The notes under the pieces are model-generated. The model saw only the letters and a list, made by a program, of their open reading frames with translations. It had not been told where the DNA came from and made no database searches. A stretch of DNA of 64,000 nt from Escherichia coli (GTDB lineage: Bacteria; Pseudomonadota; Gammaproteobacteria; Enterobacterales; Enterobacteriaceae): the NCBI RefSeq assembly GCF_001677475.2, contig NZ_CP015229.1; one strand, given 5' to 3'. Below are positions 543 through 17,438 of the stretch, piece after piece; the stretch's first letter is position 1; the number at the start of each line of letters is the position of its first letter. The translations under genes and the position numbers were made by a program.

Positions 543-1298
543 TCAAGTCGCGCTTGTTACTGCCTTCGCTGTCTTTTTCCTGTAGCTTTCCCCTTTCAGT
601 TCGAACATATATCCGTGATGGAGCAGCCTGTCTGCCGCAGCCACCGCCATAGTCTCATCCACGAAGATGCTGCCCCACATGCTGAACGGATGGTTACTGG
701 TTATCACCAGGCTCCCACGTTCATAGCGATGCGCTATTAACTCGAACAGCACACCCGTTTCGGCACTATCGCGTTTGACATAGCCAAGATCATCCACCAC
801 TATCACCCGGTAGCGATCCAGTTTCAGTAGCAGCTCATTCAGTTTCAACTGAGCTCTGGCTTTACGTAGTTCCTGCAACAGCTCTCCTGCGCTGTAGAAC
901 CGGGCCCGGTAGCCCTGACCTACTACGCCATCCACGATCGCTGCCGCCAGATGGCTTTTCCCCAACCCGCTGGCTCCGAACAGCAGAACGTTTTCTCCTG
1001 CATCAACCCAGTCTGTCGTTTCACAGAGTTGCCGGAACTGAGCTCCATTCAGTTCCGGCACCTGACTGAAGTCGTATTCGCTCAGCGTTTTGGCAACTGG
1101 CAACCGGGCCTCCTTTTTATAACGACGCAGTTTTTCACTCTCGCGCCACAGGAGTTCTTCATTGCATAGCGTCAGAAGATAGCGCGATGGTGTCCAGCCT
1201 TCTGCCAGCGCTCGTTTTTCCAGAGCGTGCCATTCAGCTCCAACTCGTGTCAGGCGTAGTTTACGCAGGCTATGTTCAAGGTGATGGATATTGCTCAC
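543..1298 (-). CDS. istB: IS21-family transposition helper ATPase IstB
   Basis: 251 aa ORF with Walker A motif GASGLGKSH and typical IstB length; start overlaps istA stop. Confidence 0.9.
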   Translation of the reverse strand: MSNIHHLEHSLRKLRLTRVGAEWHALEKRALAEGWTPSRYLLTLCNEELLWRESEKLRRYKKEARLPVAKTLSEYDFSQVPELNGAQFRQLCETTDWVDAGENVLLFGASGLGKSHLAAAIVDGVVGQGYRARFYSAGELLQELRKARAQLKLNELLLKLDRYRVIVVDDLGYVKRDSAETGVLFELIAHRYERGSLVITSNHPFSMWGSIFVDETMAVAAADRLLHHGYMFELKGESYRKKTAKAVTSAT

Positions 1299-2794
1299 TG
1301 CGAACCTCCCTTGCCACGCAGTAGTTGCTCATAACTGCTCAGGTTATGCTGTATCACATTGACTACCGGCAACGCCTTTTCTTTTATACCCAGGAAGCGC
1401 ATCAGCCGGTGCAGATCCACGTTTCCCGGGGTATTCAGCATCTGCTCCATACCTTTTGCCACGACTGAGATATCGTCGTATCCTGCAGCCAGTTTCAGGG
1501 CATGTACCATCAGCCTTCCTGCCATATCGGGCTCCAGATGATTACATAAGCGACGCCACAGCCTCCGCCATTCATCGTCCGGCAGGATGTCATTTCTCAG
1601 CGTTGCATGGCAGAACGCACCGGGCTTTTTTGCCAGACTGTCGATCACATGTCGGAAGTCGATACGACGGGCCCGCGTCTTCCCTTTTTCTGGTCTGACG
1701 CGAGGGCAGCTCATGACCTCGCTGCTGCCAACGTAACAGCTCAGACGATCGTCCCATAACCTGACCCGTAACAGTTGACCTACAAGCCGGGAAGGTACGC
1801 TGTAGACGACGTGCTTCACATTGATGGTACTGCTGCGACTAACCCTCACAGTCAGCTCATCATAGTCAGCACTGCGACGAAGCGGCAGCGGTTTCAGATG
1901 AAGACGTTCTTCCTTGACCAGATCCTGATTGTTACGGTTGTGCCGCATAACCTGCTGAGTGATGAAGGCCTGATATTCTTCTATGGTGCTGAAGTCGTTA
2001 CTGCCCCGCAGTATCAGCGCCTGACAGATACGCCTTTTCAGATGTCCGTGGGCACTTTCAACCGAGCCATTTTCGTGGCCCCGACCGGCATTATTGTGTA
2101 CGCCCTGCATTCCGTAGTGCTGACAGAGAGTAGCATAACGCTCAGTCAGCTCGCGGCGTCCATCTTCGCCCTGTTGTTTCCATGCTGCCCTCAGGCTGTC
2201 CGTTTTATGTTCTACCGGCACTCCGCCCAGTTGTCCGAGGGCTTCCTGCAGGCCTTCAGCCAGAGCAGAGAAGCTCTCACCACCCAGAACAACCCGCATC
2301 CAGCTCCAGTGGCTCCATTCCAGACGGAAGTGATACAACTTATGCGCCAACAACTTACCGGCGATGGTGACAACTACACCTTTCAGTTCAGTAAAGTCCG
2401 ACAGGCCTCGCAGGCCGGGCTGATGTTGCTGGCGGAACATGACCTCCTGCTCTGTACCATACTGTAGTTTCCATTCGCGAACCCGCCGTTGCATTGTTCT
2501 TCGAAGGCTGTTGGGGTACTGGCCGGGATATTTATCCTGTAGCATCTCCAGTAGAGTTGTTGGTGTCAGAGCCGGCCTCTCTTTCAACAGAGGAACAAGC
2601 ATGCTGTCCCACACAGCTTCCAGAGGATCTTTGCGTGTGCGCCAGTGCCGAACACTGTTTTTTGCCCACTCTCCTTTTTCGATCCGACGACCAGAACGGA
2701 CTGAGATACCAGCCTTCATGGCCGAGATATGCTGAGTTATACCTTTCTTACGCTGAGTCATATAGTAACTGACCTGAGAAGTATTGAGCGTCAC
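1295..2794 (-). CDS. istA: IS21-family transposase IstA
   Basis: 499 aa ORF immediately upstream of and coupled to istB; N-terminal HTH-like region and integrase-like core; family assignment by architecture. Confidence 0.85.
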   Translation of the reverse strand: MTLNTSQVSYYMTQRKKGITQHISAMKAGISVRSGRRIEKGEWAKNSVRHWRTRKDPLEAVWDSMLVPLLKERPALTPTTLLEMLQDKYPGQYPNSLRRTMQRRVREWKLQYGTEQEVMFRQQHQPGLRGLSDFTELKGVVVTIAGKLLAHKLYHFRLEWSHWSWMRVVLGGESFSALAEGLQEALGQLGGVPVEHKTDSLRAAWKQQGEDGRRELTERYATLCQHYGMQGVHNNAGRGHENGSVESAHGHLKRRICQALILRGSNDFSTIEEYQAFITQQVMRHNRNNQDLVKEERLHLKPLPLRRSADYDELTVRVSRSSTINVKHVVYSVPSRLVGQLLRVRLWDDRLSCYVGSSEVMSCPRVRPEKGKTRARRIDFRHVIDSLAKKPGAFCHATLRNDILPDDEWRRLWRRLCNHLEPDMAGRLMVHALKLAAGYDDISVVAKGMEQMLNTPGNVDLHRLMRFLGIKEKALPVVNVIQHNLSSYEQLLRGKGGSQ

Positions 2795-4263: not shown

Positions 4264-7200
4264 ATGGGTAAAGGCAGCAGTAAGGGGCATACCCCGCGCG
4301 AAGCGAAGGATAACCTGAAGTCCACGCAGTTGCTGAGTGTGATCGATGCCATCAGCGAAGGGCCGGTTGAAGGTCCGGTGGATGGATTAAAAAGCGTGCT
4401 GCTGAACAGTACGCCGGTGCTGGACAGTGAGGGGAATACCAATATCTCCGGTGTCACGGTGGTGTTCCGTGCAGGTGAGCAGGAGCAGACACCGCCGGAG
4501 GGATTTGAATCCTCCGGCTCCGAGACGGTGCTGGGTACGGAAGTGAAGTACGACACGCCGATTACCCGGACCATCACGTCTGCAAACATCGACCGTCTGC
4601 GCTTTACCTTCGGTGTGCAGGCACTGGTGGAAACCACCTCAAAGGGGGACCGGAATCCGTCGGAAGTCCGCCTGCTGGTTCAGATACAACGTAACGGTGG
4701 CTGGGTGACGGAAAAAGACATCACCATTAAGGGAAAAACCACCTCACAGTATCTGGCCTCGGTGGTGGTGGGTAACCTGCCGCCGCGCCCGTTCAGTATC
4801 CGGATGCGCAGGATGACGCCGGACAGCACTACAGACCAGCTGCAGAACAAAACGCTCTGGTCGTCATACACCGAAATCATCGATGTGAAACAGGGCTACC
4901 CGAACACGGCACTGGTCGGTGTACAGGTGGACTCGGAGCAGTTCGGCAGCCAGCAGGTGAGTCGTAATTATCATCTTCGCGGGCGCATTCTGCAGGTGCC
5001 GTCGAACTATAACCCGCAGACGCGGCAATACAGCAGTATCTGGGACGGAACGTTTAAACCGGCATACAGCAACAACATGGCCTGGTGTCTGTGGGATATG
5101 CTGACCCATCCGCGCTACGGCATGGGGAAACGTCTTGGTGCGGCGGATGTGGATAAATGGGCGCTGTATGTCATCGGCCAGTACTGCGACCAGTCAGTGC
5201 CGGACGGCTTTGGCGGCACGGAGCCGCGCATCACCTGTAATGCTTACCTGACAACACAGCGTAAGGCGTGGGATGTGCTCAGTGATTTCTGCTCGGCGAT
5301 GCGCTGTATGCCGGTATGGAACGGGCAGACGCTGACGTTCGTGCAGGACCGGCCGTCGGATAAGGTGTGGACCTATAACCGCAGTAATGTGGTGATGCCG
5401 GATGACGGCGCGCCGTTCCGCTACAGCTTCAGCGCCCTGAAGGACCGCCATAATGCCGTTGAGGTGAACTGGATTGACCCGGACAACGGCTGGGAGACGG
5501 CAACAGAGCTTGTGGAGGACACGCAGGCCATTGCCCGTTACGGTCGTAACGTCACGAAGATGGATGCCTTTGGCTGTACCAGCCGGGGGCAGGCGCACCG
5601 CGCCGGGCTGTGGCTGATTAAAACGGAACTGCTGGAAACGCAGACCGTGGACTTCAGCGTGGGTGCCGAAGGGCTTCGCCATGTGCCGGGCGATATCATT
5701 GAAATCTGCGATGATGACTATGCGGGTATCAGCATCGGTGGTCGCGTGCTGGCGGTGAACAGCCAGACCCGGACGCTGACGCTCGACCGTGAAATCACGC
5801 TGCCATCCTCCGGCACCACTCTGATAAGCCTGGTTGACGGAAATGGCAATCCGGTCAGCGTGGAGGTTCAGTCCGTCACCGACGGCATGAAGGTGAAAGT
5901 GAGCCGTGTTCCTGACGGCGTTGCAGAATACAGCGTGTGGGGGCTGAAGCTGCCGACGCTGCGCCAGCGCCTGTTCCGCTGCGTGAGTATCCGTGAGAAC
6001 GACGACGGCACGTATGCCATCACTGCCGTGCAGCATGTACCGGAAAAAGAAGCCATCGTGGATAACGGGGCGCACTTTGACGGCGACCAGAGCGGCACGG
6101 TGAATGGTGTCACGCCGCCAGCGGTGCAGCACCTTACCGCCGAAGTCACCGCAGACAGCGGGGAGTATCAGGTACTGGCCCGCTGGGACACGCCGAAGGT
6201 GGTGAAGGGCGTGAGCTTCATGCTTCGCCTGACCGTGGCAGCGGACGACGGCAGTGAGCGGCTGGTCAGCACAGCCCGGACGACGGAAACCACATACCGC
6301 TTCAGACAACTGGCGCTGGGGCGTTATATGCTGACGGTCCGGGCGGTAAATGCCCGGGGGCAGCAGGGTGATCCGGCGTCGGTATCGTTCCGGATTGCGG
6401 CACCGGTAGCGCCTGTCACTATTGAACTGATACCGGGGTATTTTCAGATAACGGCGGTCCCGAAACTGGCTGTATATGACCCGACGGTACAGTTTGAGTT
6501 CTGGTTATCGGAAAAGCGGATTATCGATATCAGGCAGGTTGAAACCACAGCCCGCTATCTTGGTACGGCGCTGTACTGGATAGCCTCCGGACCGGATATT
6601 GAGCCGGGCAATAATTATTATTTTTACGTTCGCAGTGTGAATACCGTCGGCAAATCGGCATTTGTGGAGGCTGTTGGCCAGCCGGGTAACGATGCTGAGA
6701 AATATCTCCATTTTTTTGAAGGGAAAATAAACAGCACCCTGCTGGGGCAGGAGCTGAACGATCGTATTAATGCCTCGGCATTGCGCAGTGAAGTTGAGCA
6801 ACTGGAGGATGAGATCAATCAGCAGATAGAGAGTGATATTGCTGAAGTGACCCAAAAAATCGGGGAGACAGAAAACAGCCTCACGCAGCTGGTTGCGAAA
6901 AAAAATGATGAGCTGTCACTGGGTATATCACAGGTGAGCCAGAGAGTGGATAACGTCAGCAGCGAACTCACGCAGACGGTCAGTCAGAGTAATGAGGAGA
7001 ATGCACGCCAGATAGCGCAGGTTCGCCAGTATGTGGATCAAAAAAGCAGTGAAATCATGACGACAACGGACCAGAAGCTGGGAGATCAGGAGGCCACCAT
7101 CCAGCAGATACAAAAGGTTCAGACGGACACCAGTAATAACCTGAACAGTATGTGGGCCGTGAAACTGCAGCAGATGCAGGATGGTCGCCTTTATATTGCG

Positions 7201-7965
7201 GGTATCGGTGCCGGTATTGAGAACACCCCCGACGGCATGCAGAGTCAGGTGCTGCTGGCGGCAGACAGGATTGCGATGATTAATCCTGCAAATGGCAACA
7301 CAAAACCGATGTTTGTTGGTCAGGGTGATCAGATATTCATGAATGAAGTGTTCCTGAAATATCTGACGGCTCCCACCATTACCAGCGGCGGTAATCCTCC
7401 TGCATTTTCCCTGACACCGGACGGAAAGCTGACCGCTAAAAATGCCGATATCAGCGGTAACGTGAATGCGAACTCCGGGACGCTCAACAACGTCACGATA
7501 AATGAGAACTGTCAGATTAAGGGGAAACTGTCAGCCAACCAGATTGAAGGCGATATTGTCAAAACGGTCAGCAAGTCTTTCCCCCGCACGAACAGTTATG
7601 CCAGTGGCACCATCACGGTAAGAATCAGTGATGATCAGAAATTTGACCGGCAGGTCATGATACCGCCAGTGTTGTTCCGTGGTGGTAAGCATGAGAATTT
7701 CAACAGTAATAACCAACAGTCATACTGGTATTCAACCTGCCGGTTAAGAGTGACCCGCAATGGTCAGGAGATTTTTAATCAGTCCACGACGGATGCTCAG
7801 GGCGTATTTTCCTCAGTTATAGATATGCCTGCCGGACAGGGGGCGCTGACACTGACATTCACCGTATCTTCATCAGGAGCGAATAACTGGACACCAACAA
7901 CCAGTATCAGCGATCTGCTGGTTGTGGTGATGAAGAAATCCACAGCAGGTATCAGTATCAGCTGA
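4264..7965 (+). CDS. J: Lambda-like tail tip / host specificity protein J (1233 aa) with divergent C-terminal receptor-binding region
   Basis: N-terminal about 800 aa match lambda J as recalled ([21 protein letters not shown]...); C-terminal third diverges and is longer. Confidence 0.9.
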
Positions 7966-8031: not shown

Positions 8032-8631
8032 ATGCGTAAACTTTATGCCGCCATTTTGTCCGCAGCCATTTGTCTGGCCTTATCCGGTGCGCCTGCATGG
8101 GCGTCTGAACATCAGTCCACGCTGAGCGCGGGGTATCTTCATGTCTCGACGAACGTTCCCGGCAGCGATGATCTGAACGGGATTAACGTGAAATACCGTT
8201 ATGAGTTTACGGACACACTGGGTATGGTGACGTCATTCAGCTATGCAGGAGACAAGAATCGCCAGCTGACCCGTTACAGCGATACCCGCTGGCATGAAGA
8301 TTCCGTTCGTAACCGCTGGTTCAGCGTAATGGCGGGGCCGTCTGTGCGCGTGAATGAATGGTTCAGCGCGTATGCGATGGCGGGTGTGGCTTACAGCCGT
8401 GTGTCGACTTTCTCCGGGGATTATCTCCGCGTAACTGACAATAAGGGGAAAACGCACGATGTGCTGACCGGAAGTGATGACGGTCGCCACAGCAACACGT
8501 CTCTGGCGTGGGGAGCTGGCGTGCAGTTTAACCCGACCGAATCCGTGGCTATTGATATTGCTTATGAAGGCTCCGGCAGTGGCGACTGGCGCACTGACGG
8601 TTTCATCGTGGGTGTCGGTTATAAGTTCTGA
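8032..8631 (+). CDS. lom: Lom-like outer membrane protein (Ail/Lom/PagC family)
   Basis: 199 aa ORF with signal peptide (MRKLYAAILSAAICLALSGAPAWA) and terminal aromatic residue (YKF); lambda lom position downstream of J. Confidence 0.85.
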   Translation: MRKLYAAILSAAICLALSGAPAWASEHQSTLSAGYLHVSTNVPGSDDLNGINVKYRYEFTDTLGMVTSFSYAGDKNRQLTRYSDTRWHEDSVRNRWFSVMAGPSVRVNEWFSAYAMAGVAYSRVSTFSGDYLRVTDNKGKTHDVLTGSDDGRHSNTSLAWGAGVQFNPTESVAIDIAYEGSGSGDWRTDGFIVGVGYKF

Positions 8632-8657
8632 TTAGCCAGGTAACACAGTGTTATGAC

Positions 8658-8686
8658 AGCCCGCCGGGTTCAGGCGGGCTTTTTTG
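8658..8686 (+). terminator. Rho-independent terminator after lom
   Basis: Stem AGCCCGCC/GGCGGGCT followed by TTTTT. Confidence 0.65.
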
Positions 8687-8696
8687 TGGGGTGAAT

Positions 8697-10787
8697 ATGG
8701 CAGTAAAGATTTCAGGTGTCCTGAAGGACGGAGCGGGTGAGCCTGTCGTAAACTGTGCGATTGAATTGCGAGCCAGAAGAACCAGTCCGACAGTTGTGGT
8801 TAATATTGTGGCAACCTGTCTTACGGGAAGTGATGGCGGGTATACTATTAATGCTGAGCCGGGATTTTATGATGTATTTTTGTCCCGCTCAGGGCATCCT
8901 CCTGTAAAGGCGGGGGAAATTTATGTTGCACCGACAGATGAGCCGGATACGCTGAATGCTTTTCTGGATGCACCAAAGGAGGGTGATTTACGCCCTGAGG
9001 TAATGAAGCGTTTTGAGGAAATGGTAAATACCGTTGTTCGCTTGTCTGAGCAGGTGGTCAGTGACAGGGAGAGAGCAGAAACAGCTGCTGATGATGCAAT
9101 CAATGCAGCAACATCTGCGGCGGTTAGTAAGGATGAGGCAGAAGAGCTAAAAAATCAGACACAGCAGAGCGCCGAAGCTGCAGCCGGAAACGCACAGCAG
9201 ACGGCACAGGATGTGACGACAACCGCAACGGCCCGTGATGATGCGGAACGTTTTGCGGGTGAGGCAGAAAACAGCGCACAGTCATCAGGCACAGCGCGGG
9301 ACGAATCAGTCGATGCCGCCGAACGCGCCCGCCTTTATCATAATGCCGCATCATCAGCAGCGACCAGTTCAGAACTGTCGGCAAATGCGGCGCTGGGGCA
9401 CAAAAACAGTGCCGCCGAATACGCCCGACAGGCTAAAGCCAGCCAGGATGCAGGTGCAGACAATGCGCAGGAAGCGAAACAGTACAGGGATGAGGCGCAG
9501 CAGATAGTTGATGACCTGAATGCAACAAATGCCTCCACGACAGAAAAAGGTCTGGTGCAACTCTGTAGTGATACGGACAACGACAGCGAGGAACTGGCTG
9601 CCACGCCAAAGGCTGTCAAAGACGTCATGGACGAGGCGAAAACAAAAGCGCCACTGGACAGTCCGGCCTTCACCGGCACCCCAACCACCCCAACCCCACC
9701 GGATGATGCCGCCGGTCTGGAAGCAGCGAACGCAGCGTTTGTGCGCAAACTGCTTGCTGCGCTGGTTGGCTCATCGCCGGAAGTTCTGGACACCCTGAAC
9801 GAGCTGGCAGCGGCGCTGGGCAATGACCCGAACTTTGCGACGACAATCACAAACGCGCTGGCAGGCAAACAACCGCTTAATGACGTCTTAACGGCAATCA
9901 GCGCACTGACGCAACGGGCAGATAATCTTCTGTACTTCAATACAGACGGGAATGCCTCACTGTCTCTGCTGTCAGAGAAGGGCCGCGCATTACTGGCGCA
10001 TGACACGGCTGAAGCCATGCGCACGGAGCTTGAGCTGAACGCGGCTGCGACGATGGAACCCCAGAGTGATATCCGTGACCGCACACCGGGCAGGCTGGCC
10101 CTGTCCGGGATGTATGGGTTTGGACAGGCATTCACCAGCACTGACGCTCTGGCGTTTGAGGGGCTGTCTGATTTCGTTGAGTGGTTGAAGAAAGTCACGC
10201 CGGGGCGGTATGCGGTCAGTATTACAGACTCCTCGCAACTGCTTACCGGTACCACGCAATTTAACGGCATTATTGATGTGATGTGGTCACCGTACGCCAA
10301 CAGTGAATCCGACACAGTCCGCAAATTTAAAACCCTGATGTGCTACAACCAGTATTATCAGGGTGAACACTGTATTCACTATATGCAGTACCGGTACAAC
10401 GACAGCGATAACAGCTGGAACATGTCATCGCGGGTAGTTGTATACGACGGAGATTCACTGGCGTACCTGCTGTCCAGGATGGCGGGCTCAGGCTCATATT
10501 ATAAATACCCGGCCGTTGGTGTGCCGATTATGGCGGCATATCAGGGGGAGAGTTTTGGTGCAGATGCGTCTCTGGGGCTCGGTGATATTGTGCCGGGTTC
10601 CCGTCTTGGCCCTCTGGCTATGAGTGCACGGGTTAGCGATACAGGGACATACGCATCCTCACCGCAGGTTGTGATTGGCGGTGCTGGTGAATACAACTTC
10701 CCCGGTCGTTACACGGCGCTTTCGGGGACCCGCATTAGTCACGATACAACGCGTGGCTATATCGGTCTTTTTGTACGCATTGAGTAA
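8697..10787 (+). CDS. stf: Prophage side tail fibre protein (Stf-like)
   Basis: About 696 aa ORF (ATG at 8697; the ORF track starts at GTG 8691); Ala/Gln/Glu-rich fibrous central region; followed by tfa. Confidence 0.8.
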   Translation: MAVKISGVLKDGAGEPVVNCAIELRARRTSPTVVVNIVATCLTGSDGGYTINAEPGFYDVFLSRSGHPPVKAGEIYVAPTDEPDTLNAFLDAPKEGDLRPEVMKRFEEMVNTVVRLSEQVVSDRERAETAADDAINAATSAAVSKDEAEELKNQTQQSAEAAAGNAQQTAQDVTTTATARDDAERFAGEAENSAQSSGTARDESVDAAERARLYHNAASSAATSSELSANAALGHKNSAAEYARQAKASQDAGADNAQEAKQYRDEAQQIVDDLNATNASTTEKGLVQLCSDTDNDSEELAATPKAVKDVMDEAKTKAPLDSPAFTGTPTTPTPPDDAAGLEAANAAFVRKLLAALVGSSPEVLDTLNELAAALGNDPNFATTITNALAGKQPLNDVLTAISALTQRADNLLYFNTDGNASLSLLSEKGRALLAHDTAEAMRTELELNAAATMEPQSDIRDRTPGRLALSGMYGFGQAFTSTDALAFEGLSDFVEWLKKVTPGRYAVSITDSSQLLTGTTQFNGIIDVMWSPYANSESDTVRKFKTLMCYNQYYQGEHCIHYMQYRYNDSDNSWNMSSRVVVYDGDSLAYLLSRMAGSGSYYKYPAVGVPIMAAYQGESFGADASLGLGDIVPGSRLGPLAMSARVSDTGTYASSPQVVIGGAGEYNFPGRYTALSGTRISHDTTRGYIGLFVRIE

Positions 10788-10801
10788 TAAGGAAATAAGA
10801 C

Positions 10802-11380
10802 ATGAAAATCAGAGCGGTGAAAGGCATCAGAAACGCGCATTATCTTGAAAATGGTGCGGTTGACTGCGAGGTGTTATTTGAAGGTGAAACGGAGTTCGTC
10901 CTGTATACCGCCATACAGGATGATATGGCCCCGACAGGCCAGCATGTCTGGCAGGAGCTGCAAAGCGGGAAATGGGGCGAAATCGCCCCGTTCACCGTCA
11001 CGCCGGAACTTATTGCAGCGGCAAAGGATGCCAAAAGGCGGGAAATTGAGGCATGGCGCGACAGTCAGGAAAACGTTGAGTTTATTTTCACGTTTGATGG
11101 CCGTCGTTTTGATGGCGGAAAAACCTCGCAGTCACGCCTTGCCCCCGTGGTTGCAACAGCACAGGCCGGACTGCTTCCGGAGGGATTTTTCTGGACTGAT
11201 GCGGATAATAATAACGTCGTACTGACCAGGGAGAAACTTATTGCGCTGAACGATGCCATGATGGTGGCCATGGTGGCGGAGGGCTTTAAAATCCACGAAC
11301 GTCAGCGGGAGATGAAAGAGGAACTGAGCAGCCTGGAGGATTTACGCTCAATCAGAGCGATGGCGATTAGCAGTAATTAG
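10802..11380 (+). CDS. tfa: Tail fibre assembly protein (Tfa-like chaperone)
   Basis: 192 aa ORF immediately downstream of stf; Tfa-like length and position. Confidence 0.8.
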   Translation: MKIRAVKGIRNAHYLENGAVDCEVLFEGETEFVLYTAIQDDMAPTGQHVWQELQSGKWGEIAPFTVTPELIAAAKDAKRREIEAWRDSQENVEFIFTFDGRRFDGGKTSQSRLAPVVATAQAGLLPEGFFWTDADNNNVVLTREKLIALNDAMMVAMVAEGFKIHERQREMKEELSSLEDLRSIRAMAISSN

Positions 11381-11470
11381 CGGTCAATTCTGGGCTCTTT
11401 GTCTGCTCCTTCACCGTCTGGAATTGTGTGTCAATTAGCCTGGAATTAATCGGGTTCAGATTGTTTTGTT

Positions 11471-11513
11471 GTGGCAAAATTGGGACAAAAGGGGCAAAAA
11501 TGGGGCAAAAAAA
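11471..11513. repeat. Four tandem approximately 10-bp GGGGCAAAA-like units (phased A-tracts)
   Basis: GTGGCAAAAT / TGGGACAAAA / GGGGCAAAAA / TGGGGCAAAAAAA read directly from the sequence, helically phased. Confidence 0.7.
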
Positions 11514-11805
11514 GAGTAGGTTATTGTGGTTTATTGTAGTTGCTGATATGTTTTAATTCATTGAAAATGAAATAAAATACTTATGAGTCAGATGGTTGCA
11601 ATTTTTGTCCTTACTTGTTCAGGTTGTATTGTTCTTTCTTACTAATTTCTTGATTTTGCGACATTTAAAAGCGACTCAATTCGTTATATGGCATCAGAAG
11701 AGTATGCGTCATGCCGGAATGCCCAGCATAAGAAATCTGATATAAAAACAGTGGCGTGTATGGTACGGATTAGAGGGGAAAATGTCAGCACATTTGCGAA
11801 ATGAA

Positions 11806-11836
11806 TCAAAAAGCCCGCAGCAATGTGCGGGCGTTA
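11806..11836 (-). terminator. Rho-independent terminator downstream of uspF
   Basis: On the minus strand: stem GCCCGCA/TGCGGGC followed by TTTTTGATTC, directly after the uspF stop. Confidence 0.6.
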
Positions 11837-11839
11837 GTG

Positions 11840-12355
<516 letters not shown>

Positions 12356-12414: not shown

Positions 12415-13548
12415 TTAGAACTGATAAACCAGACCTAAAGCGACAATATCATCGGTAGAGATGCCGTTGGCAGCGTAGAAGCTGTCATCTTCATCCAACA
12501 GGTTGATTTTATAGTCAACATAGGTGGACATGTTTTTATTGAAATAGTAAGTCGCGCCAACATCGGCGTATTTAACCAGATCTTTATCATCAACACCTGC
12601 CGGGTTGTCTGCACCACCGGCAGCGTGCAGGTCACGGCCTTTAGACATCAGGAAAGAGACTGCCGGACGCAGACCAAAATCAAACTGGTACTGTGCAGTA
12701 ACTTCAAAGTTCTGGGTTTTGTTTGCAACAGCATAATCGCTGTCGCCAAACGGGGTCATATTACGCGTTTCTGAATACATGGTTGCCAGGTAAATATTGT
12801 TAGCATCGTATTTTAGCCCAGCAGTCCACGCGTCTGCTTTATCACCACCCGCCGCAGTATGGTTAACCTGGTCATTGGTGCGGTCAGAAGAGGTGTATGC
12901 CGCACCAGCGCTAAAGCCCATGCCTAAATCATATGTTGTGGAAAGACCCCAGCCGTCACCGTTTTCATGGCGAACATCACGTCCGTTGTTGGTGCCTTCC
13001 TGACCATTACTGGCACCTTCGTTGTTACCTTGATACTGCACCGCGAAGTTCAGACCATTTACCAGACCGAAGAAATCAGTATTACGATAAGTCGCGACGC
13101 CATTGGCACGACCAGTCATAAAGTTGTCTGCATTGGTATAAGAGTCACCGCCAAATTCAGGCAGCATATCGGTCCAGCCTTCGATGTCGTACATTACGCC
13201 ATAATTACGTCCGTAATCGAAAGAACCGTAATCTGCAAATTTCAATCCGGCAAATGCCAGACGGGTCCATGACTGGTTTTTTGAGGATTCAGTGTTGTTT
13301 GCCTGAATATTGTATTCCCATTGACCGTAGCCAGTGAGTTGATCGTTAATTTGGGTTTCGCCTTTAAAACCCAGACGCGCATAGCTCTGGTCGCCATCTT
13401 TCGCTGAATTATCAGAAAAATAATGCAGGCCATCAACTTTGCCATACAGATCTAATTTGTTGCCGTCTTTATTATAAACTTCGGCTGCATGTGCAGCACC
13501 TGCGGCGAGCAGGGCAGGAATTAAAAGTGCCAGTACTTTGCTTTTCAT
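12415..13548 (-). CDS. ompN: Outer membrane porin OmpN (OmpC/OmpF family)
   Basis: 377 aa porin with signal peptide and C-terminal ...LVYQF; located between uspF and micC/ydbK as in K-12. Confidence 0.85.
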
Positions 13549-13913: not shown

Positions 13914-16900
13914 TTAATCGGTGTTGCTTTTTTCCGCTTTTCCGGCCATTTGTGCCAGGAAGTCATAGCGTTTTTGCAAATCAGCTGCGGCATCTTTCCA
14001 TAACTGTTCTGCCACTTCTGGCTGCTGCGAATTCAGACGACGGAAACGCTGCTCGTGAAGTAACGTTTCTTCCAGTGCTTCTGACGGCGGGCGTGAATCC
14101 AGCGCCAGCGGCAGTTTGCCTTCATCGGCACGACGCGGATCAAAGCGATATAGCGGCCAGAAGCCGGTAGCAGTGAGTTGGCGCATCTGGTCGTGACTGA
14201 GTGCCAGATCGTAACCATGCTCTTCACACGGGCTATAAGCGATGATCAGCGATGGCCCCGGATACGCTTCCGCTTCCTGAATCGCTTTCACCGTCTGGTT
14301 GAGCTGCGCGCCGAGAGAAATCTGCGCCACATAAACATGACCGTACATCATCATACTGACGCCAAGATCTTTACGCGCTTTACGTTTGCCGTGCTCGCCG
14401 AACTTAGTTACTGCACCCAGCGGTGTCGCTTTCGACGCCTGACCACCGGTGTTGGAATAGCATTGCGTATCCAGCACCAGAATGTTGATGTTTTCCGTCA
14501 AACTCAATACATGATCCAGACCGCCAAAGCCGATATCGTAAGCCCAGCCATCACCACCAATCAGCCAGATTGATTTTTCCACCAGTGCATCTGCGTCACG
14601 TAGCAGTTCATGTGCTTCGGCAACATCGTTGAGTTGCTGGCGTAAAGCTGCAACCTGCTCACGACGAACCTCTGGCGTAGCGTCTGATTTCAACGCCGTC
14701 AGTAATTCCGTCGGGATTTTATCGGCAAATTGATCCAGCAGACGAAGCACGCGGACACGGTGTTGATCGACCGTCAGGCGGAAACCAAGGCCAAATTCGG
14801 CGTTATCTTCAAACAGCGAGTTCGCCCATGCCGGCCCACGACCGTTGGCATCGGTGGTATACGGTGTAGAGGGCAGGTTACCGCCATAAATTGAAGAACA
14901 GCCGGTGGCGTTAGCGATCAACATCCGGTCGCCATAGAGCTGAGTCAGCAATTTAATATACGGCGTCTCGCCACAACCGGAGCAAGCACCTGAATATTCA
15001 AACAGCGGTGTAATCAGCTGCGATGTACGAATATCAATACGTTCCAGTTTGCTACGGTCGATTTCTGGCAGGTTGAGGAAGAAATCGTAATTGATTTTCT
15101 CTTCTTCGACATGTTCCAGGCGCGACATCATATTGATGGCTTTAATCTCTGGATTCTGACGGTCTTTCGCCGGGCAAACTTCGACGCACAGGTTACAACC
15201 GGTGCAATCTTCCGGAGCCACCTGCAAGACATATTTCTGCCCGCGCATATCACGCGATTTCACATCCAGCGAATGCAGGCTGGCAGGGGCGTTTTCCATC
15301 GCTTCAGGCGGTACCACTTTTGCGCGAATAGCTGAGTGTGGGCAAGCGGCGACGCAGTGGTTACATTGGGTACAGAGTTCCTCTTTCCAGATGGGGATCT
15401 CTTCGGCGATATTGCGTTTTTCCCAGCGCGTGGTGCCCATCGGCCAGGTGCCGTCTGGCGGCAGCGCCGAAACGGGGAGGGCATCACCAAGCCCGGCGAG
15501 CATCGCAGCGGTTACGGTTTTCACGAAATCAGGGGCGGCATCGGAAACCACTGGCGGTCGATTGGCGCTGTGCGGATTTACCGGTTGCAACGGAACTTCT
15601 TCTACGGATTCACGCGCCAGCGCCAGAGCCTGCCAGTTGCGCTCCACCAGATCCTGACCTTTGCTACTGTAACTTTTGGCAATCGCACCCTGCAATTCTG
15701 CGAGGGCGCTATCGCCAGGCAGAATTTGCGTCAGATGGAAAAAAGCCATCTGCATGACGGTATTAATACGGGCCGCCAGGCCACATTCGCGGGCGATTTT
15801 CGCTGCGTTAATCACATAGAAGCGCGCTTTTTTCTGGTTTAGCACGGCCTGAACTTCCTGCGGCAAGCGCGACCACACTTCATCTGCGCTGTACGGCGTG
15901 TTGAGCAGGAAAATGCCGCCAGGTTTTAAACGCTCAGCCATCTGATATTTATCGATAAACTGCAACTGGTGGCAGCCAACAAAATCAGCCTGGGAAATGA
16001 GATAAGCGGAACGAATCGGCTGTTCGCTCACGCGAAGGTGAGAAACCGTCAGGCCGCCCGCCTTTTTGGAGTCGTAAACAAAATAGCCCTGTGCGTACCA
16101 CGGCGTGGAATTACCGATAATCTTGATATTGTTTTTGGTCGCGGAAACGCTGCCATCACTACCAAGGCCATAAAACAAGGCTTCCAGTTTCGCCGAGTTT
16201 GGCAGGGTGTTTTCCGGCAACGGCAGTGACAGATTGGTCACATCATCGTAAATACCAACCGTAAAGCGCGCTTTCGGTTTAGCCGCGTTGAGCTCGGCAA
16301 ATACCGCCAGTACACAGTCCGGGCCAAATTCTTTGGATGAAAGACCATAGCGCCCACCAATGACACGGGGCAGGATTTCACGCTCGCCATTATTAAAAGC
16401 TTCTGCCAGTGCGGTCATCACATCCAGATAGAGCGGTTCTGCCTGGGCACCAGGTTCTTTGGTTCTGTCCAGTACCGCCACGCTGCGTACGGATCCCGGC
16501 AGAGCTTGTAGCAAGTGTTTGGCGGAGAAGGGACGGTACAGGCGAACTTTCAGCACGCCAACTTTTTCGCCACGGGTTAGCAATTCATCAACCACTTCTT
16601 CACAGGTGCCAATGGCAGAGCCCATCAGGATAATCACCCGTTCCGCTTGCGGATGCCCGTAATATTCAAACGGCTGATACTGACGACCTGTCGCGGCAGA
16701 GAAATCATTCATCGCCTGTTCAACATGGTCATAGACCGCGTTGTACCATGGGTTGGTGGCTTCGCGAGACTGGAAATAAGTGTCAGGATTGGCGGACGTA
16801 CCGCGGATCACCGGATGTTCCGGGTTGAGTGCCCGGGCGCGATGAGCATCAATTTCGGCCTGCGGCATGAGATCAAGAATCGTGTCATCGGCCAGCGGGA

Positions 16901-17438
16901 CAATTTTATTGATTTCGTGGGACGTGCGGAAACCATCAAAGAAATGAATAAATGGCACGCGGCTTTTCAGCGTCGCGATGTGCGAAATGAGAGCAAAGTC
17001 TTGCGCTTCCTGGACGTTTGCTGCACACAACATCGCGCAACCCGTCTGGCGCACCGCCATGACGTCGGAATGATCGCCAAAAATAGAGAGTGCATGTGTG
17101 GCAACGGTACGTGCCGCTACATGCAGGACAAACGGTGTGAGTTCGCCTGCCAGTTTGTACAGCGTCGGGATCATCAGCAGCAAACCCTGCGATGACGTAA
17201 ACGATGTTGAAAGAGCACCCGTCTGCAAAGCGCCATGCACGGTAGCGATAGCACCCGCTTCCGACTGCATTTCAACCACGCGTGGTGTGTCTCCCCAAAC
17301 GTTCTTCAAGCCGTTTCCGGCCCAGGCATCAGCCTGTTCTGCCATCGTGGAACTGGGGGTAATAGGGTAGATGGCGATAACTTCACTGGTGCGAAACGCC
17401 ACCGAAGCAACCGCGCCATTACCGTCAATAGTAATCAT
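13914..17438 (-). CDS. ydbK: Pyruvate:flavodoxin/ferredoxin oxidoreductase
   Basis: 1174 aa; TPP-binding and two 4Fe-4S ferredoxin motifs (CTQCNHCVAACP, CTGCNLCVEVCP). Confidence 0.95.
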   Translation of the reverse strand: MITIDGNGAVASVAFRTSEVIAIYPITPSSTMAEQADAWAGNGLKNVWGDTPRVVEMQSEAGAIATVHGALQTGALSTSFTSSQGLLLMIPTLYKLAGELTPFVLHVAARTVATHALSIFGDHSDVMAVRQTGCAMLCAANVQEAQDFALISHIATLKSRVPFIHFFDGFRTSHEINKIVPLADDTILDLMPQAEIDAHRARALNPEHPVIRGTSANPDTYFQSREATNPWYNAVYDHVEQAMNDFSAATGRQYQPFEYYGHPQAERVIILMGSAIGTCEEVVDELLTRGEKVGVLKVRLYRPFSAKHLLQALPGSVRSVAVLDRTKEPGAQAEPLYLDVMTALAEAFNNGEREILPRVIGGRYGLSSKEFGPDCVLAVFAELNAAKPKARFTVGIYDDVTNLSLPLPENTLPNSAKLEALFYGLGSDGSVSATKNNIKIIGNSTPWYAQGYFVYDSKKAGGLTVSHLRVSEQPIRSAYLISQADFVGCHQLQFIDKYQMAERLKPGGIFLLNTPYSADEVWSRLPQEVQAVLNQKKARFYVINAAKIARECGLAARINTVMQMAFFHLTQILPGDSALAELQGAIAKSYSSKGQDLVERNWQALALARESVEEVPLQPVNPHSANRPPVVSDAAPDFVKTVTAAMLAGLGDALPVSALPPDGTWPMGTTRWEKRNIAEEIPIWKEELCTQCNHCVAACPHSAIRAKVVPPEAMENAPASLHSLDVKSRDMRGQKYVLQVAPEDCTGCNLCVEVCPAKDRQNPEIKAINMMSRLEHVEEEKINYDFFLNLPEIDRSKLERIDIRTSQLITPLFEYSGACSGCGETPYIKLLTQLYGDRMLIANATGCSSIYGGNLPSTPYTTDANGRGPAWANSLFEDNAEFGLGFRLTVDQHRVRVLRLLDQFADKIPTELLTALKSDATPEVRREQVAALRQQLNDVAEAHELLRDADALVEKSIWLIGGDGWAYDIGFGGLDHVLSLTENINILVLDTQCYSNTGGQASKATPLGAVTKFGEHGKRKARKDLGVSMMMYGHVYVAQISLGAQLNQTVKAIQEAEAYPGPSLIIAYSPCEEHGYDLALSHDQMRQLTATGFWPLYRFDPRRADEGKLPLALDSRPPSEALEETLLHEQRFRRLNSQQPEVAEQLWKDAAADLQKRYDFLAQMAGKAEKSNTD

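Follow-up and report, generated by a model that had tools for sequence, protein, structure and literature searches.

A lambda-family J tail fibre in an Escherichia coli prophage with a long helical shaft and an A8-type tip expected to bind OmpC

Introduction

The central tail fibre protein of phage lambda, gpJ (UniProt P03749; PDB 8IYK, 8XCG, 8XCJ and 8XCK), carries below its second FNIII domain (FNIII-2) a shaft of alpha-helical structure, residues 809–861, which forms a three-helix bundle. On binding of LamB the upper helix of this shaft (residues 809–840) is remodelled and its lower part (841–861) turns into beta-strands (Ge and Wang, 2024; PMC11101478). In the current triggering model for lambda the short shaft flips over and partly refolds when the receptor is bound. 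Here we analyse a J gene located in a prophage of Escherichia coli, within a stretch of 64,000 nucleotides of contig NZ_CP015229.1 (RefSeq assembly GCF_001677475.2) that we refer to as the window. The J protein of the window shares its gene position and domain order with lambda gpJ, and both ends of the shaft and the beta-prism below it are conserved, but the shaft is 159 residues long instead of ~53–58, and the tip, 45% identical to that of lambda, is expected to use OmpC rather than LamB.

Tips of J proteins have been exchanged by design. Brodel et al. (Nature 2024; PMC11338833) grafted natural E. coli J C-termini onto lambda gpJ at residue 964, and particles carrying the resulting A8 chimera delivered DNA via OmpC in hosts without lamB, with the K-12 as well as the EDL933 variant of OmpC. 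A second OmpC-directed chimera from the same work is named 1A2. Phage 21 is a native LamB user that gained OmpC by a single mutation (PMC11336670); the residue behind this gain is not given in that phage 21 coevolution paper.

Results and discussion

A lambda-like fibre with a threefold longer shaft

We put a probability of about 0.8 on the reading that the J protein of the window is a functional-looking lambda-family fibre, put together from at least three recombined sources, in which a long shaft carries an A8-type, presumably OmpC-directed tip. The sources would be a lambda-like hub (aa 1 to ~680), a long-shaft distal module made up of FNIII-2 and the 159-residue shaft, as in the prophage J of E. 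coli 09-00049, and an Ig-like receptor-binding domain of the type found in A8 and phage 2H10.

That the protein belongs to the lambda family is clear from its hub. As the original prediction held, the first two thirds match lambda J (92% amino acid identity by BLASTP across the first ~834 residues, positions 1–854 in the alignment), and the protein is about 100 residues longer than its lambda equivalent (1233 versus 1132 aa in NC_001416, a difference of 101). The ~100 residues after position ~834 have no lambda counterpart, and identity is 54% in the last 297 aa, such that pairwise alignment with lambda J yields no high identity over the full length. Lambda and every other J gene compared match positions 4264–5800 with 96% identity at the DNA level. 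The Pfam domains follow each other in the order Ig_J, Ig_J_second, a gap, Phage_Tail_Tip and Ig_GpJ_C, and the scan of the protein found no domain in aa 819–944. The tail operon has the lambda-family order L-K-I-J-lom-stf-tfa, here represented by the end of L, by K, I and J, by lom (intact), and by genes for a side fibre and for an assembly protein of the DUF4376 type, and is broken at the L-K junction by an IS21-family element. In E. coli N96, RefSeq labels a 99.9%-identical 3′ part of the gene as gpJ. The gene is already known in the sense that it is routinely annotated as gpJ and that its tip is known and structurally solved.

The shaft is where the protein seems to depart from what has been described. 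It lies between FNIII-2 and the beta-prism, keeps both ends of the lambda shaft, is predicted to be helical, and is about three times as long as the 53–58 residues of lambda; its first residue (aa 809, nt 6688) coincides with the start at 6690 that had been proposed for the divergent region. When aa 809–986 were searched against the PDB with phmmer, only the ends matched lambda and A8 gpJ, window residues 809–837 corresponding to lambda 809–837 and window residues 941–986 to lambda 840–885, and no solved homologue of the middle of the insert was found. Because the search aligns only the shaft ends to lambda, the alignment places the extra residues exactly between the two functional halves of the lambda shaft. 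The insert would in this way separate the helix that clamps the FNIII domain (lambda 809–838) from the segment that refolds on triggering (lambda 841–861).

The segment had been described as a Q/E/S/T-rich, heptad-like stretch. Its composition and strong periodicity bear this out, aa 830–945 being rich in Q, E, S, N, L and T with no proline and three glycines, but the period is not that of a heptad. Hydrophobic residues recur every 3.65 residues, with a spectral power of 126 against a shuffle mean of 24 (standard deviation 12) that none of 500 shuffles reached, and the segment has no spectral peak at 3.5 residues. The best heptad register drifts along it, and it does not behave as a canonical heptad coiled coil. 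The strongest sequence autocorrelations instead fall at lags of 29 and 58 residues, in that order. Counted back from the conserved motif NSMWAVK, clean rows of 29 residues number five in the window and in phage PhiR49_2, three in phage 21 and two in lambda. As 29 residues make eight helical turns, that is 3.63 residues per hydrophobic position, we would expect the bundle to run nearly straight and not to supercoil as heptads do.

The tail needle gp26 of phage P22 and the YadA-type trimeric autotransporter adhesins are rod-like trimeric helical spacers with non-heptad periodicities, the length of which sets the reach of the terminal binding domain. They offer an analogy to the long J shaft, but they have no detectable homology to it, the best trimeric autotransporter match in the PDB sequence search having an expectation value (E) of only 0.18.

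Structure prediction of the C-terminal region of J, as had been suggested, gave a helical shaft and a confident tip. The AlphaFold2 model (monomer, alignment of 15 sequences) has helices at aa 811–824, 826–938 and 946–959 with a predicted local distance difference test score (pLDDT) of 66–82, and the tip domain reaches 85–95; the beta-prism is poorly modelled, as expected of an intertwined trimer. The insert is thus predicted as one continuous helix (aa 826–938). At 0.15 nm per residue it would lengthen the shaft by ~15 nm, from ~8 to ~23 nm, a figure that, like the trimer geometry, is extrapolated from the monomer model.

The tip is of the A8 type

The final ~150 residues had been predicted to diverge from lambda while keeping its framework, and they do: 64 of the last 150 and 71 of the last 158 residues (45%) are identical, and the motifs DMPAG and LTFT are retained. 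The domain is therefore not a close copy of the LamB-specific lambda tip (lambda ~975–1132). Comparison with tips of characterised receptor use gave a much closer relative. Phages 2H10, Chlobot and PhiR70_1 have tips that agree with the last 158 residues at 157 positions, and the same holds, over aa 1076–1233, for the chain "A8 gpJ 713" of PDB entries 9WCA and 9WCB (9wca_J), the latter of which holds three OmpC chains alongside A8 gpJ. The "GpJ A8" DNA in the supplement of Brodel et al. (PMC11338833) contains the tip sequence of the window J, as found with DNA strings (a search of the supplements with protein strings had no match). The sole difference from A8 is alanine for threonine at residue 1194, beside the conserved DMPAGxG motif. 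From this near-identity we infer that the tip of the window J binds OmpC.

It is only in comparison with lambda that the tip is divergent. At 95% nucleotide identity or more, the A8-type tip is present in ~1516 of 5426 complete E. coli genomes, which places it among the commonest J tips of the species; Stx1a-converting phages carry it at 91%.

One alternative is that the tip binds LamB, or LamB and OmpC, instead of OmpC alone, since it falls in the same tip clade as that of phage 21. The two tips are identical at 129 of 158 positions and share a distinctive 17-residue segment, phage 21 uses LamB and needs one mutation to use OmpC (PMC11336670), and at residue 1194, where the window differs from A8, phage 21 differs from A8 too. 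Against this stands the 157/158 identity to A8, a tip that worked via OmpC without lamB and was solved together with OmpC, whereas the 29 differences from phage 21 are scattered through the domain. We therefore regard LamB binding as improbable, although it is the most probable of the alternative explanations considered here.

Shaft and tip have different nearest relatives

The phages that share the tip do not share the shaft. It is short in 2H10, as in lambda (both 1132 aa), and of medium length in Chlobot and PhiR70_1 (1160 aa). Phage 21 J (also 1160 aa) has a medium shaft that shares its last two 29-residue units with the window but is 73 residues shorter. The length of the window shaft, with the same 29-residue register, is instead found in the J proteins of PhiR49_2, PhiR40_1, 09-00049, E2348/69 and 377323_2f (1232–1233 aa), which carry tips of other types. 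Those of PhiR49_2 and 09-00049 resemble 1A2, end in KKATAGITIS/ISIS, and are identical to the window tip at 99–100 of 158 positions. The ending of 1A2 is in fact that of the PhiR49_2 tip type, to which the tip of 09-00049 is closely related. Both common tip partners of the long shaft, the A8 type and the 1A2 type, thus appear by sequence to be OmpC binders.

A mismatch map points to where the two parts were joined. The J gene of 09-00049 is 99–100% identical to the window from 5824 to ~7230, with 8 mismatches in 5925–7229, after which 21 mismatches fall in 7230–7437 and mismatches are dense past 7500. 2H10, Chlobot and PhiR70_1 show the opposite, only 4–5 mismatches being left to the right of 7506 (~99% identity). 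Within 7230–7500 the window fully matches neither parent; since several positions there differ from both, a third donor or older patches inside this zone are likely. We conclude that the shaft and the tip, whose nearest relatives differ, are distinct modules that a crossover at ~7230–7500 brought together. This interval falls in the conserved beta-prism (80 of 108 residues identical to lambda 867–974), a stretch in which crossovers occur and which also holds lambda residue 964, the fusion point engineered in A8. The proposal that receptor specificity had been swapped by recombination is accordingly supported, with an A8-type, presumably OmpC-binding tip as the acquired part. The mosaic module that had been proposed is recombinant as well, but insert and tip are two independent modules rather than one.

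The combination itself is uncommon among complete genomes. A long shaft with an A8-type tip was found at 97% identity or more in three of them (N96 at 99.9% and two MFDS strains), while 14 cover at least 80% of positions 6500–7965; it also occurs in several IMG/VR contigs.

The composition step is a trait of the gene family

The DNA had been predicted to become AT-rich from ~6.6 kb, near the start of the divergent region at 6690. The shift is real, but it begins earlier: a single change-point analysis of guanine-plus-cytosine (GC) content places it at 6413, ~200 bp before the former position and ~280 bp before the latter. This point separates a GC of 0.599 on the left from one of 0.491 on the right, and sliding-window profiles fall from ~0.60–0.64 to ~0.48–0.50 between 6300 and 6450. 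The log-likelihood ratio of 21.1, against a maximum of 11.1 among 200 codon shuffles, confirms the breakpoint quantitatively. J alleles as a whole also begin to diverge where the GC step falls, identity to lambda-type J genes dropping from more than 90% to ~80% at 6300–6360.

It could be argued from this that a foreign phage of lower GC was the recent source of the AT-rich distal third, insert and tip arriving as a single block. The strong statistical support for the step from 0.60 to 0.49 would fit such an event, as would the synonymous divergence (dS) among J alleles, which is ~10 times higher distally than in the hub. However, the best GC breakpoint lies at J nt 2150–2224, the border of the two Ig/FNIII domains, in all nine J genes analysed, lambda included. 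The step is a trait of the J gene family and is not specific to the allele of the window. Since the step is found at this very position in lambda J, it cannot be used as evidence for a swap, and we rejected it as a recombination scar; the suggestion that it marks a recent exchange here fails for the same reason. As insert and tip moreover differ in nearest relatives, with a crossover between them, and shaft classes and tips reassort, import as a single block is very unlikely.

Shaft lengths fall into discrete classes

We defined the shaft class of a J protein by the number of residues that separate a pair of conserved anchor motifs, the first closing FNIII-2 and the second opening the beta-prism. 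This spacing is 74 (lambda and 2H10), 102 (phage 21, Chlobot and PhiR70_1) or 175 (the window, PhiR49_2, 09-00049 and 377323_2f) among the nine reference proteins, and the same three values, with no intermediates, were found in 74 database proteins and 77 IMG/VR loci. Every class bears more than one tip among the reference proteins, and in IMG/VR the 175 class is paired with at least seven different C-terminal endings. Shaft lengths are thus discrete, and the classes reassort independently of tip type. A 705-aa long-shaft J (P0124) has a C-terminus past the beta-prism that is unlike an Ig_GpJ_C tip ("...YRSMFEINKVVFSGVSSRDGVKERDNEW..."), which suggests that the long shaft here bears a receptor-binding domain of quite another kind.

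Longer shafts exist, and of the classes above 175 only one, with a spacing of 186, is backed by a complete genome. This is the 1243-aa J of E. coli LH50-c (L012:1505-5236), in which a hendecad-sized insertion of 11 residues (REMTQLEKDVR) accounts for the spacing. Two fragments, P0010 and P0122, have further, recent shaft duplications of 58 and 29 residues, their shafts being longer than that of the window. P0122, with an anchor spacing of 273, contains exact duplications that are not confined to the shaft, including one of a beta-prism segment, and may be misassembled.

With the shaft as query, a word-indexed protein search gave hardly anything but contig-end pieces of at most 312 aa, though it did bring out longer variants (P0010), and a 50%-representative protein search returned many fragments; frequencies were instead taken from a DNA search. 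By this measure the long class is not a rare one: homology along the entire insert was detected at 1135 places in 770 of the 5426 complete E. coli genomes, mostly at 76% identity, and at ~85% identity or more in 31 genomes, among them the enteropathogenic strain E2348/69. Of 50,697 phage records, just two, PhiR40_1 and PhiR49_2, have the long shaft. Since both are deposited as complete phage genomes, with E. coli ECOR13 as host, the long shaft appears to be compatible with infectivity.

The ratio of nonsynonymous to synonymous divergence (dN/dS) in the insert is 0.18 and 0.12 against long alleles that are 76% and 90% identical in DNA, at dS of 0.4–1.0, and the insert has no insertion or deletion relative to either; these values indicate that it is under purifying selection. 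A repeat search of 6600–7200 found no tandem duplication at the DNA level, and as any such duplication is gone, the 29-residue repeats must be old. That the insert is non-functional baggage of a decaying prophage, expanded by replication slippage, or an assembly artefact, as the IS21-family insertion in the tail operon and the suspicious exact duplications of the longer-shafted, metagenomic P0122 might suggest, is barely credible against an identical length in alleles merely 76% identical, the low dN/dS, the occurrence of the long class in 770 complete genomes and two isolated phages, and the lack of a DNA-level tandem repeat in the window.

Possible function of the long shaft

By homology to lambda, we envisage that the trimeric tip would dock on the trimeric porin OmpC, as shown for the A8 domain, that the binding signal would pass up through the beta-prism into the helical shaft, and that release of the shaft would open the tail tip. 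A long shaft would most likely serve to fix the tip's reach or stand-off with respect to the tail end and the side fibres, and a longer reach might serve where O-antigen or capsule layers are thicker. More speculatively, the J shaft could be a modular ruler of 29-residue (and 11-residue) units, the lengths of which (~58, 86, 159 and 170 or more) would give host range a second axis that does not depend on the tip. We offer this as a tentative idea with the odds rather against it. Reach may in that case be tuned to the thickness of O-antigen or capsule or to side-fibre geometry, and signal transmission to the tail may perhaps be altered.

Several points weigh against our reading of a functional long-shafted, OmpC-directed fibre. 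The shaft model is a monomer with moderate helix confidence and a poor beta-prism. Alanine 1194, threonine in A8, adjoins a conserved motif, and the tip of phage 21, for all its similarity, is natively LamB-using, which indicates that specificity is labile in this clade. No evidence for a particular selective reason behind the extra length was found, and no association of shaft class with the downstream lom and side-fibre genes was visible among 60 loci with 3-kb flanks: the same Stf N-terminus occurs in all classes, many stf genes being cut by the flank. Finally, with the IS21-family element between L and K, the copy of J in the window may not be expressed normally.

The receptor-binding part matters little in itself, as it is another copy of a common and solved OmpC-directed J tip. 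The window J does confirm that exchange of J tips takes place in a conserved crossover region, one that is already exploited to engineer lambda-based delivery particles. The shaft-length polymorphism, on the other hand, looks undescribed; no literature on J shaft-length classes or on the 29-residue repeat was found in the searchable library. Natural shafts of 1.5 times, three times and more the lambda length, inserted between the clamping and the refolding halves, constitute a series with which the triggering model of lambda can be tested, and the same series could test the effect of fibre length on infection through thick surface polysaccharide. Fibre length may also be a design parameter for engineered lambda particles.

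Feature map and prophage surroundings

The features of the J gene and its neighbourhood are collected in Table 1.

Table 1. Coordinates of J gene features and neighbouring elements in the window
Feature	Position	Strand	Evidence or remark
J gene (central tail fibre / tip attachment protein), complete, intact	4264..7965	+	1233 aa; open reading frame list and translation
Lambda-like hub domains and first Ig/FNIII domain (Pfam Ig_J, aa 610-714), GC ~0.60	4264..6405	+	Ig_J E=8e-43
Compositional change-point, best position 6413, FNIII-1/FNIII-2 boundary	6300..6450		Change-point analysis with shuffle control
Second Ig/FNIII domain (Pfam Ig_J_second, aa 716-818)	6409..6717	+	E=1e-34
Alpha-helical shaft, aa 809-967, 159 residues	6688..7164	+	Lambda shaft limits, alignment, AlphaFold2, periodicity
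Extra ~101-103 residues (aa ~838-940), 29-residue repeats within shaft	6775..7083	+	PDB phmmer, autocorrelation
C-terminal end of shaft and central straight fibre (beta-prism), Pfam Phage_Tail_Tip aa 945-1073	7096..7482	+	E=3e-31
Probable recombination junction zone	7230..7500		Sliding identity and mismatch maps
Receptor-binding domain aa 1076-1233, A8/2H10 type; Pfam Ig_GpJ_C aa 1109-1233	7489..7962	+	E=6e-36
Codon 1194 (Ala), sole receptor-binding domain residue unlike A8/2H10/Chlobot (Thr)	7843..7845	+	Sequence comparison
IS21-family element	543..2794	-	Between L (ends 469) and K (starts 2891)
IstB helper ATPase	543..1298	-	
IstA-like transposase	1295..2794	-	
Antisense open reading frame in J	5194..6309	-	371 aa, TTG start
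Antisense open reading frame in J	6505..6855	-	116 aa, TTG start
lom, side tail fibre gene and assembly gene	8032..11380		199, 698 and 192 aa; assembly gene DUF4376-type
Low-GC stretch at right end of prophage	11400..11850		GC 0.35
OmpC-subfamily (ompN-like) porin	12415..13548	-	Beyond prophage
Pyruvate:flavodoxin oxidoreductase, ydbK	13914..17438	-	Beyond prophage

The IS21-family element lies between the tail genes L and K and may disturb expression of K-I-J. In the homologous prophage of N96, L and K are 11 bp apart, and the K open reading frame is 247 aa in both. Downstream of J, lom is intact and is followed by the side tail fibre gene, whose product has a conserved N-terminus (MAVKISGVLKDG), and by the assembly gene. 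The same trio follows J in 09-00049 and in N96, but an IS66 element truncates the lom of N96.

Past the right end of the prophage lie a low-GC stretch and, beyond it, a porin gene and ydbK, a neighbourhood that resembles the surroundings of Rac, a prophage of K-12. In N96 the J allele with 99.9% identity resides at another site, in a prophage beside tRNA-Ser and the hya operon. The two antisense open reading frames inside J are most likely by-products of a GC-rich coding strand.

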